Part shown: piece by piece, positions 8,638-22,017 of the stretch
How the letters are laid out: each line of letters starts with the position of its first letter
Numbering within the stretch: position 1 is the stretch's first letter
Assembly: GCA_964384105.1 (NCBI GenBank)
Contig: CAYLJV010000008.1
Coordinates: 1 to 49,827, forward strand
DNA: 49,827 bases
Source of the DNA: Candidatus Hadarchaeota archaeon
GTDB taxonomy: Archaea; Hadarchaeota; Hadarchaeia; Hadarchaeales; JAGGTB01
Direction: 5' to 3'
The notes under the pieces: model-generated
Told to the model about the DNA's origin: nothing
Database searches by the model: none
What the model saw: the letters and a program-made list of their open reading frames with translations, nothing else
Program-made: the position numbers and the translations under genes

Positions 8638-9714
8638 TCATCCACTCATTGTGTTTAAGTAGTCCCTGATCTTCCCCATGCTTTCATTCCAACTTGGGAG
8701 CTCCTCAAATCTTTCTCGTGCATTCTCGCTCATATCCCCCAGCTTTTCGGGGTTTTCCTTAATCCACTCTAGACACTCGATAAGAGAATCAATGTCCCCC
8801 GGTCCGATTAGAAAGCCCTGCTTCCCATCGGTTATGAATTCACTCGCTCCACCTTTTTTCGAAGCAATAACCGGCAGCCCATGCCCCAACGCCTCCACAT
8901 AGACTATTCCAAATCCTTCGTAGAAGGAAGGAACTGCCAGAAGGTCGCTACTTCCATACAGATTCGAAAGTCGTTCCTCTGAGACAAAGCCGAGGAGTTT
9001 CACTCTTGAATCCAAAGACTCCTCTCTGATCATTCTCCTTATATGTCGGGAGTAACCTTCATCGGTGCCCATTTTTCCCACTATTTTCAACGAGAAACCC
9101 TCAACCCGAGAAAGCGCCTTAATCAATACGTCGAGGCCCTTATGAGGATGCATATTTCCGACAAAAAGTATCGTAAGATCCTCCTTATCTCCTGGTGAAG
9201 CCACTTTCTTTGGTGAGATATGGTCCTTGCCTGGATAAGCCACGACGCCATCTGCTTCATTCACGAGTGAAATCACGTCATCTCTCGTTGCTCGGCTATT
9301 GAAAACGAATCCATCGAGGGTCCTGAGGTATCTTTCCTCGAAGTACTTGTACATCTCACTCCTTTCTATTTCTCTGGTTGCTAAAAACGACAGGTGATGA
9401 ACTATGGATACAAGAGGATATTCGACCTCGCCTTTTAGTTTCTGATTCAAGTAGAATAGAGAAGAATGGTTTAGTTCATCTTGTAAAAGTACATCTACAT
9501 CTAATCCCCGAAGTCTCTCGTAGAGATTCTCATCAAAATTGTTGGATACATTTCCCAGATAATCTTTCCTTGGTATCGAAACGACTTCGACTTCGTCTCC
9601 CTTTTCCTCAAGATAACTGATCAGCATCCTATCGTAAAGATAGCCGCCTGTAATCTGCCTCAAGTCACCATAAATCAGAAGACCTACTCTCATTCGAACA
9701 CCCAAGATTCTCAA
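8638..9714 (-). CDS. glycosyltransferase family 4
   Basis: TGGYLYDR, FVGN..PHKG, EGFGIVYVEAL (EX7E). Confidence 0.9.
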   Translation of the reverse strand: MRILGVRMRVGLLIYGDLRQITGGYLYDRMLISYLEEKGDEVEVVSIPRKDYLGNVSNNFDENLYERLRGLDVDVLLQDELNHSSLFYLNQKLKGEVEYPLVSIVHHLSFLATREIERSEMYKYFEERYLRTLDGFVFNSRATRDDVISLVNEADGVVAYPGKDHISPKKVASPGDKEDLTILFVGNMHPHKGLDVLIKALSRVEGFSLKIVGKMGTDEGYSRHIRRMIREESLDSRVKLLGFVSEERLSNLYGSSDLLAVPSFYEGFGIVYVEALGHGLPVIASKKGGASEFITDGKQGFLIGPGDIDSLIECLEWIKENPEKLGDMSENARERFEELPSWNESMGKIRDYLNTMSG

Positions 9715-20613: not shown

Positions 20614-21165
20614 CTAAGAGATTTTACTCATTAAATCCTTCGCAACAGCTTCATGTATTTCCAAAGCCTTGCTGCTATGCAACACAAAGCCAACTTTTTC
20701 AACATTGGTAAGACTCTCTGTCTCTTGAACCACCGTCTGTAATGCTATTTCCGCCGCCTCATCCATTGGATAGCCGAACGCACCTGTCGAAATTGCTGGA
20801 AAAGCAACAGAGTCAATCTCCTCCTCTTCGGCTATTTGAAGGGCGTTTTTGTAGCAATCGGCTAGTAACTTATCTGAAGGCTCATCACGTCCGTAAATAG
20901 GCCCTAAGCAATGAATGACTTTGTCATTGGGCAAGCTGAACGCATCAGTTATAACGGCCTGGCCCGGTTCTATCGGAGCTAATGGCCGGCAGGCTTTATC
21001 CAGTTCCGGTCCAGCAGCTCGGTGTATTGCTCCAGCAACGCCACCGCCGGGTCTTAGCCGAGCATTTGCAGCATTGACAACGGCTGTATAATCTTCTTGG
21101 GAGACTATATCCCCTTGTCGTAACTCCAAAACTATTCCTTTAATCTTCTTTTTCATTTCTATCAT
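20614..21165 (-). CDS. macro domain (ADP-ribose binding/hydrolase) protein
   Basis: GDI, VVNAAN, GGGVAGAIH, FPAISTGAFGYP. Confidence 0.93.
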   Translation of the reverse strand: MIEMKKKIKGIVLELRQGDIVSQEDYTAVVNAANARLRPGGGVAGAIHRAAGPELDKACRPLAPIEPGQAVITDAFSLPNDKVIHCLGPIYGRDEPSDKLLADCYKNALQIAEEEEIDSVAFPAISTGAFGYPMDEAAEIALQTVVQETESLTNVEKVGFVLHSSKALEIHEAVAKDLMSKIS

Positions 21166-21343
21166 TGAATGTTTCTTTCCAAAAAGTTAAAAATCTTCAA
21201 ATTCCACAGTCCACCCACCATTAGCGATCGGTGTTTACGAAACAATAATCCCCATAGCAATAGCTTCGGTGGCAACCTCTAGTAAAACTATATAGTTATT
21301 TTTCTTCCCTTTTTATTTTCTAAAAAGATGAAAGTATATTGGG

Positions 21344-21463
21344 AGTGTGAAGAGCCGGCCGTCTGAGTCTCCGAGCCCTGTTGATGGACCTTACCAGATC
21401 TCGACTAAACCCCCTGGTTAAAAGGGCATTCCGTCATAATTTTTCCGGCCGGCCACTCTCACT
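21344..21463 (-). ncRNA. unidentified structured RNA closed by a BHB motif
   Basis: GC-rich intergenic island; minus strand AGTG-AGAG-TGG-CCGGCCG ... CGGCCGG-CTCT-TCA-CACT; internal hairpins with G-U pairs on the minus strand. Confidence 0.6.
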
Positions 21464-21587
21464 TAGACAAAGTAAAAAAGGAAACGAGAAAAGATCATTC
21501 TTTACCTTTCCTGAAATTTTCTTCTAAAAAAATCGAAAGGAGACAGCACATTCCACCATATCTTAAGACTTGGAGAGTAAAAAATTC

Positions 21588-21603
21588 TAGTGGGCCTGGT
21601 GAG
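21588..21603. repeat. degenerate copy of the tRNA-Val 3' end (att-like)
   Basis: TAGTGGGCCTGGTGAG vs TGGTGGGCCCGGTGGG at 22686-22701, 13/16 identical, same orientation. Confidence 0.5.
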
Positions 21604-21789
21604 CTCCCTGCAAATAGGTTCGAACTTCCCTCTCAAATCAATCCTATGTTTTAGAACCTCCTTGAGAGAAATATATTTTCCAAAAAAACAAGTAATTCCA
21701 GAAAATTCATTGTTTTATCTATTGGACCATATCGAACCTAGATCAAACTTATTAGTATTTACTTACACATACATGCACTGGTGATTAGG

Positions 21790-22017
21790 ATGCCAAATAT
21801 GACGATAAGAATCCCCGAAGATCTGAAAAAAGAGATTGATAATCATCCAGAAATAAACTGGAGCGAGGTCGCCAGACAATCCATGTGGTCTTACATACAC
21901 AAGCTAGAAGTTGCGGAAAAAATAGCCTCGGAAAGCAAGTTGACCAAAAATGGAGCAGAAGAACTGAGCAAAAATCTCAAACACAAAATAGCAGAACACT
22001 ACAGGGAAAACACATGA
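21790..22017 (+). CDS. RHH antitoxin (VapB-like)
   Basis: MPNMTIRIPEDLK..EINWSEVAR; overlaps the toxin start (ATGA). Confidence 0.85.
   Translation: MPNMTIRIPEDLKKEIDNHPEINWSEVARQSMWSYIHKLEVAEKIASESKLTKNGAEELSKNLKHKIAEHYRENT

Follow-up and report, generated by a model that had tools for sequence, protein, structure and literature searches.

The window analysed here is a stretch of 49,827 nucleotides at the start of contig CAYLJV010000008.1, from the genome of a Candidatus Hadarchaeota archaeon (GCA_964384105.1). The site of interest has genes for TFB, a macro-domain protein, a VapBC-like pair and GGGP synthase on its flanks; in public genomes, the closest relatives of this GGGP synthase come from MAGs labelled Hadarchaeota. 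The site stands out as G+C-rich within a spacer of 720 nt, which runs from the macro-domain gene on the minus strand (start at 21165) to the VapB-like gene on the plus strand. The G+C fraction is 0.53 in 21350-21449 and falls to about 0.3-0.4 in the more distant 100-nt windows of both flanks. On the minus strand, the window copy of the element spans about 123 nt (21341..21463), from an outer AGUG to the CCC that ends its closing stem. Its minimum free energy (MFE) is -48.9 kcal/mol and the self-score of its covariance model is 152.8 bits.

Two further features of the spacer and its margin lie on the plus strand. At 21563-21640, a unique segment of the form UGGAGAG ... GGUUCGAAC ... CUCUCA looks faintly tRNA-like, with a T-loop-like GGUUCGAA; it has no match to the Rfam tRNA model at E<=10 and repeats no tRNA gene of the genome. 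The region 21742-22000, which includes the start of the VapB-like gene (21781-22017, followed by a PIN_2 gene to 22430), recurs in many contigs of a brine run at ~85-90% identity with a summed depth of up to ~100, so that the VapBC-like pair belongs to a multi-copy or widely shared family there.

The closing stem of the element can be drawn as a bulge-helix-bulge (BHB) of the hBHBh' type, which the initial annotation had described and which we find in the minus strand only. All 15 pairs (4 + 4 + 7) are Watson-Crick. The 4-bp outer helix h joins AGUG (21463-21460) to CACU (21347-21344), the 4-bp central helix H joins AGAG (21459-21456) to CUCU (21354-21351), and the 7-bp inner helix h' joins CCGGCCG (21452-21446) to CGGCCGG (21361-21355). 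The two bulges, UGG (21455-21453) and UCA (21350-21348), both lie 3' of the central helix, and the order along the minus strand is AGUG-AGAG-UGG-CCGGCCG ... CGGCCGG-CUCU-UCA-CACU. The motif thereby has the polarity of archaeal BHB sites, which we took from the canonical 37/38 tRNA intron, where the 5' splice site comes after the anticodon side of the central helix. The choice of the minus strand in the initial annotation was correct, because the plus strand yields the mirror geometry, with the bulge 5' of the central helix. The length given there for the enclosed fragment is likewise right: cuts after the second base of each bulge would delimit 21453..21349, which is 105 nt.

To judge by our own scan of the whole 1.6-Mb genome (both strands, spans of 12-300), this is the best BHB that the genome contains. 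The scan gave 4876 raw matches, of which 33 have no G-U pair, 12 have in addition at least 15 pairs, and a single one, the window motif, also has at least 10 G-C pairs. When the genome was shuffled four times in blocks of 40 nt, the class with at least 15 pairs and no G-U had 2, 2, 2 and 2 matches, and 0, 0, 0 and 0 were left once at least 10 G-C pairs were also required. The shuffles indicate that the long-range pairing is non-random; they are no proof of selection on the bulge geometry.

The element has one significant non-self match, at G000:C9:9215-9326 on another contig of the same genome (81% identity, E 6e-24; 8 matches at E<=10). Blastn and MAFFT alignments define a unit that is common to both copies, from 21286 to 21460 on the minus strand of the window and from 9206 to 9380 on the plus strand of C9. 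The homology begins at GAGUG of the 5' strand and extends 55 nt beyond the 3' end of the stem, and pairwise blastn of the copies finds 132 of 168 positions identical over 21452-21286 of the window. The neighbouring genes of the C9 copy are unrelated to those of the window copy.

Several of the differences between the copies fall on paired positions of the stem. In the inner helix, G21453-C21354 of the window copy has become A-U in the paralogue, with both sides changed. Three further changes there are wobble-compatible and affect one side each (C21448-G21359 to U-G, G21446-C21361 to G-U and G21454-U21353 to A-U). The two copies look like two genes under structural constraint.

What the paralogue does not share is the BHB. 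In its fold, the six pairs of GGAGUG/CACUCC stack directly on the nine of AACCGGUCG/UGGCCGGUU, and a 5-nt bulge, CUUCA, protrudes on one side. A relaxed scan (h>=2, h'>=3) found two overlapping BHB registers in the window copy and none at the closing stem of C9:9206-9325. Conservation of the bulge geometry, on which the initial annotation had let its proposal depend, is thus absent from the only homologue (n = 1), and even a relaxed EndA would find no bulge-helix-bulge there.

The 5' strand of the closing stem (21446..21463, minus strand) suggests how the motif came about. It carries the direct repeat AGUG-AG-AGUG (21463-21454), so that CACU of the 3' strand (CGGCCGGCUCUUCACACUC, 21343..21361, minus strand, defined by sequence and by the alignment of the copies) is able to pair with either AGUG in a slipped register; three pairing registers are possible in all. 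On the 3' side, UCUUCACACUCCC (21353-21341, minus strand) is the same in both copies. The outer AGUG (21463-60), which the BHB requires, lies beyond the region that can be aligned between them. The window copy therefore has a BHB because its 5' strand repeats AGUG, and since the paralogue lacks the motif, the shape looks like an accident of a short repeat. In our view the hBHBh' shape is best explained by register slippage in a repetitive stem, and would then be no conserved processing signal.

Folding energies add little to this argument. Constrained folds of the window copy give -42.9 kcal/mol for the forced BHB and -46.5 kcal/mol for the paralogue-like register, compared with -48.9 kcal/mol for the free MFE, in which two 1x1 loops are all that interrupts the stem. 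In the ensemble, the probability of the central BHB helix is below 0.01. The same model was applied to two genuine strict tRNA-intron BHBs of the host genome, for which it gave a central-helix probability of 0.0 (tRNA-Arg TCG) and of 0.13-0.81. The energy model is unable to exclude a BHB, because one true tRNA-intron BHB also receives 0.0, and the energetic case against the motif is accordingly a weak one.

At the inner end of the CCGGCCGG helix, both copies have a GA after the 5' strand and a GA before the 3' strand (21445-21444 and 21363-21362, minus strand). At the junction, these dinucleotides could pair with each other as tandem sheared G.A. A kink-turn was considered here and rejected, as the G.A pairs are not accompanied by a 3-nt bulge.

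Inside the stem, the most conserved part is a core, GUAAGGUCCAUCAACAGGGCUCGGAGAC (21367..21394, minus strand), in which 27 of 28 positions are identical in the paralogue. A candidate hairpin in this core pairs GGUCC (21390-86) with GGGCU (21378-74) and presents the 7-nt loop AUCAACA. The sole difference in the core, C to U, leaves the pair intact in the minus orientation only. A second candidate helix, ACCA(G)/(C)UGGU (21393..21418, with 21418-21415 opposite 21396-21393, minus strand), encloses GUCGAG. One of its C-G pairs is replaced by U-A between the copies (alignment columns 46/67), a compensatory change that gives ACUA/UAGU. The enclosed GUCGAG is invariant in both copies and could pair downstream with CUCGGAGAC, in which case an H-type pseudoknot would form. 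The internal hairpin GAUCU/AGGUC of the initial annotation does not survive the comparison: it is broken in the paralogue by a C to A change, and the competing ACCA/UGGU is kept by a double change. Every internal helix is provisional, because only two sequences contribute to it.

The direction of transcription can be approached from the termini and flanks. As the initial annotation had seen, a TTTTT run follows the element on the minus strand (21326-21322). Both copies have it, at a distance of 15-17 nt from the stem, and it is likely the archaeal terminator of a minus-strand transcript; T-runs follow many tRNA genes of the host genome. For the window copy, the z-score of the fold is -3.09 on the minus strand versus -1.44 on the plus strand. 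For the paralogue it is equal on both (-1.32 and -1.38), and the consensus fold of the two copies has -25.05 kcal/mol on the minus versus -23.4 kcal/mol on the plus strand. The minus reading also has a purine excess, G>C with A>U, as do the SRP and RNase P RNAs of the host. Wobble pairs make for compatible changes in each orientation. Those of the plus orientation concern GGGAGUG, paired with CACUCUC or CACUCCU, and the helix GAGCCCU/AGGGCAUUC. On balance we lean toward the minus strand as the more probable one.

Further along the minus strand lies a conserved A/T box (within 21288..21321) that consists of AGAAAAUAAAAAGG (21321-21308) and ACUAUAUAGUU (21299-21288). In the minus reading it resembles the BRE/TATA boxes, GAAAA plus an A/T stretch, upstream of host tRNA genes. 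With a weak position weight matrix built from 44 ncRNA upstream regions, the box scores 8.6 on the minus strand, and its counterpart in the paralogue scores 6.8. We infer that it is the minus-directed promoter of a second transcript, which would start at about 21286, where the homology ends, and that it is not the promoter of the element itself. Upstream of the element in the minus orientation, we found no convincing promoter whose position is conserved, and the matrix is too weak to place one. The sole conserved A/T box adjoins the opposite side of the element.

From the promoter-like box to the start codon of the macro-domain gene (21166-21286, minus strand), such a second transcript would have a leader of about 120 nt. 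At its end, within 25 nt of the AUG, the segment carries two T-runs (UUUUU twice). It recurs in contigs from the brine run and from a run of oil-field origin, where the identity is ~85-93%, and it folds no better than its shuffles (z -0.51). A riboswitch-type leader of the macro-domain gene was considered and dropped, because the paralogue has no downstream gene.

The element belongs to none of the familiar RNA classes. At gathering thresholds, Rfam reports only two tRNAs in the window and nothing at the element, and a permissive scan of 21150-21650 (E<=10) returned three matches, all with E-values of at least 2.1. Rfam and ARAGORN place no tRNA or rRNA in the flanks, as the initial annotation had maintained, and no other Rfam family. 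Its wider description also holds: the element is free-standing, G+C-rich and structured, and is not a tRNA, rRNA, 5S, SRP RNA, RNase P RNA, MITE or ORF. The 5S rRNA, SRP RNA and RNase P RNA of the host are found elsewhere in the genome (96.9, 190.1 and 219.8 bits), so the element is no hidden or permuted copy of any of them. Neither ARAGORN nor the Rfam tRNA model finds a tRNA, split tRNA or permuted tRNA at the element. Such RNAs would show parts of a cloverleaf, namely a T arm whose UUCRAAU-type loop adjoins the acceptor strand and an anticodon stem of 5 bp; the junction hairpin of the element would instead pair over 7 bp and place a pyrimidine at the equivalent of position 37.

A C/D-box reading of the plus strand, offered in the initial annotation as an alternative, is contradicted by the paralogue, where the D' box CUGA is changed to CUAG and the D box CAGA to UAUA. 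On the plus strand, GUGAAGA matches the C box RUGAUGA in 6 of 7 positions, and no CUGA adjoins the 3' strand of the stem. No terminal C/D kink-turn can be drawn, no tandem G.A pair lies beside a 3-nt bulge, and Rfam gives no C/D match. An H/ACA reading was rejected on sequence. A MITE or other repeat was rejected as well: there are just two copies, the homology runs 55 nt past one arm and stops at the other, and the unit has no match in plasmids or phages. A Ro/Y RNA was discarded with 0 matches to PF05731 (TROVE) in a genome that is 90.2% complete, and an integrated element bounded by a tRNA repeat with no tRNA-fragment repeats found.

The distribution of the element is narrow. BLAST in 60 relatives yielded only fragments of up to 29 nt, and the flanks of the two best (24 nt in G040 and 21 nt in G003) show no similarity. 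A covariance model (R1) had 0 matches at E<=0.1 in 100 relatives under strict filters, a top score of 14.5 bits at E<=10 in 8 genomes from the family of the host, and a top score of 9.7 bits at 5 syntenic macro-domain-gene loci with filters off. At one syntenic locus, that of G001, homology ends at the start of the macro-domain gene. A 23-mer with up to 3 mismatches was found 0 times in 64 other genomes of the order. Exact-pattern scans gave 0 matches in genome_contigs, 0, 1 and 0 in viral_contigs (the single match being to a 17-mer only) and 0 and 1 in metagenome_contigs (to a 20-mer only, without the structure). Blastn against plasmids and phages found no match.

The one other occurrence comes from a brine metagenome, in which a contig of ~93% identity spans 21124-21377 with 18 differences. 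Among the 15 differences listed, 14 fall in 21172-21266, one is at 21334 and none lies in 21335-21377, with at most 3 unplaced. The listed differences leave the conserved box untouched, and likewise the element's 3' part. The contig covers that 3' part, which indicates that a close relative carries the element too.

The enzymes for BHB processing are encoded in the host genome. EndA is found at one locus (PF01974, 119.1 bits, a 181-codon frame in the region of C1:105875-106132) and RtcB as one gene (PF01139, 594.1 bits); with both genes present the pathway is available, yet it is not implicated. Rnl3-type ligases could circularise end-paired RNAs without any BHB. The single, short EndA gene suggests an alpha4-type enzyme. 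Enzymes of this type are classically strict for the full motif. Some alpha4 EndA enzymes, those of Hadesarchaea included, may nevertheless accept relaxed motifs, according to the available text of one report (PMC5829648). Four tRNA genes of the genome are of intron-bearing length (89-97 nt; G000:C1:104435-104530, C1:351151-351247, C1:581189-581277 and C5:3039-3130). ARAGORN leaves the anticodon unnamed in two of the four. Our own scan finds a strict hBHBh' in two of the four, one of them at a non-canonical position.

Taken together, the site holds a real, unclassified and lineage-restricted structured element, present in two copies. The sequences show the element and its paralogue, compensatory changes in two helices, a paralogue that lacks the BHB, and no match to a known family. 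The reading that we prefer, if by a modest degree, is that the element is expressed as a linear small RNA from the minus strand. We infer its transcription, strand, ends, linearity and mode of action from the DNA. Under this proposal, two paralogous genes would encode a small structured RNA of no described family, ~115-125 nt long, or ~140 nt if it reaches the T5 run (21322..21326). A bipartite G+C-rich stem, made up of GAGUG/CACUC and the 8-9-bp CCGGCCGG helix, would clamp the ends together and enclose a core of several helices, with a 28-nt centre that hardly differs from copy to copy. The linear minus-strand transcript would terminate at the T5 run. The conserved core, as a loop-presenting hairpin or possibly a pseudoknot, may act in protein binding or in base pairing.

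The central claim of the initial annotation, that EndA and RtcB release a 105-nt circle, fails as a general account of the element, for the sole homologue keeps the stem and has no BHB. The claim can be narrowed to the window copy, where EndA would cut at 21454/21453 and 21349/21348 and RtcB would close the 105-nt circle, with a junction hairpin of a 7-bp stem (CGGCCGG/CCGGCCG) and a 7-nt loop (CUCUUCG), while the paralogue would be linear or inactive. We consider even this narrower version improbable. The perfect geometry, with 15 Watson-Crick pairs, is the top BHB of the genome and is matched by none of the four shuffles; a coincidental origin is uncommon for an all-Watson-Crick motif of this quality, which counts against the linear RNA. 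The host also has EndA and RtcB and strict motifs in two of its four intron-length tRNA genes, genuine BHBs need not be the predicted MFE, and the 5' UTR of HVO_1309 is a precedent outside tRNA and rRNA, as far as the available text of that report goes (PMC7714728). Against these points, the paralogue has retained the stem by compensatory change with the BHB absent, so the function of the family would be independent of EndA. Furthermore, the 5' strand of the outer helix is non-homologous flank, two more stable registers compete with the BHB, and the joined 'exons' would be a few tens of bases long and make an RNA without function. It is similarly doubtful, and we would expect it to prove wrong, that the window copy is a newly arisen free-standing EndA substrate, derived from a linear small RNA through a 4-nt repeat, with the 105-nt circle as its sole product. 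If true, a circular RNA that depends on a BHB would here be seen to emerge from a linear ancestor, while the same genome still has the linear paralogue.

A transcript from the opposite strand is unlikely in our estimation, though it deserves attention. It would start at GGGAGUG (~21341) on the plus strand, the A/T box would supply a TATA element (TTTTTATTTT, 21310-21319) 22-31 nt upstream, and the paralogue would be the structured 5' leader of a 119-codon gene. The 55-nt extension of homology lies only on the side of the A/T box, the distance from box to GGG is the same in both copies, and the consensus fold is comparable to that of the minus strand. The 119-codon ORF begins 14 nt beyond the stem of the paralogue on the same strand and is real: 8 of 61 genomes match it, its own included, and in four relatives the match is near full-length (E 1e-13 to 3e-9). 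This ORF (G000:C9:8836-9192; L002 1119-1478, minus strand) belongs to no Pfam family, and its homologues in four related genomes are 38-43% identical. Nevertheless, in the plus reading the box lacks the purine-rich GAAAA that precedes the A/T box of most host tRNA genes and that the minus reading has, and neither copy has a T-run after the element on the plus strand. The window copy has no plus-strand gene for ~330 nt. In the relatives, homologues of the 119-codon gene lack a long leader and have a TATA-like box ~45-50 nt ahead of the start codon. The promoter of the 119-codon ORF is probably inside the element, where a TATA-like CAUAAACUUU could serve the gene in place of a leader.

We give little credence to the view that the site is a duplicated DNA segment with no RNA gene, namely a G+C-rich inverted repeat with a portable promoter, acting as a regulator site or cruciform or having no function. 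The genomes searched yielded just two copies, both from one species, and the common unit includes the promoter-like box, which would fit such a segment. The compensatory changes in two helices and the wobble-compatible changes, in contrast, suit RNA pairing better than protein half-sites. The near-invariant 28-nt core sits between the repeat arms, and the 3' part is conserved in the 93%-identical relative next to variable spacer. The linear minus-strand RNA remains our preferred account. Were the BHB in use, an uncultured archaeon of brine and microbial mats would have a gene of a rare kind, one that stands alone and yields a circular RNA, and would show how such signals arise. As matters stand, the weight of the site is smaller: a lineage without RNA data gains a candidate small RNA that fits no class, together with a paralogue that allows covariation to be read. 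A textbook-looking BHB can arise by register slippage in a repetitive stem, so BHB scans need the support of homologues before a circle is called.

How does the element compare with known archaeal systems? The BHB intron in the 5' UTR of Haloferax volcanii HVO_1309 is cut by EndA in vitro and its circle has been sequenced, as the available text of the report describes (PMC7714728). With this intron, to the extent that the same text covers it, the element shares a canonical 3-4-3 BHB outside tRNA and rRNA in an organism with EndA and RtcB. It differs in that it is known here from DNA alone, in the absence of the motif from the homologue and in having no functional host transcript. In Thermoproteus, a circularly permuted SRP RNA is restored by BHB cleavage and circularisation, according to the accessible portion of the paper (PMC4731332). 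Judged by that portion, it too is a stand-alone ncRNA whose termini form a BHB and whose excised and ligated piece is the product, as would be the case here. The Hadarchaeota host, unlike Thermoproteus, has an unpermuted SRP RNA (190.1 bits), and no fragment of the element matches Rfam models.

The circular C/D-box sRNAs of archaea are guide-type RNAs of ~100 nt that are released as a circle. Their occurrence, together with that of a C/D-box sRNA in the tRNA-Trp intron, is mentioned in the available parts of two reports (PMC12558985, PMC9014305). The element is similar in size (~100 nt), and its plus-strand GUGAAGA resembles a C box (6 of 7). However, it has no D box by the terminal stem, D' and D are lost in the paralogue, its BHB geometry and its C/D reading lie on opposite strands, and it has no Rfam C/D match. 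The HgcC/E/F/G class of Methanocaldococcus and Pyrococcus consists of lineage-specific intergenic sRNAs that appear as G+C-rich islands in A+T-rich spacers. Although the element has no sequence or covariance-model similarity to these RNAs and consists of two diverged paralogues with a common downstream promoter-like box, it resembles them in being a G+C-rich island with paired ends, a downstream oligo-T, a narrow distribution and no assigned function.
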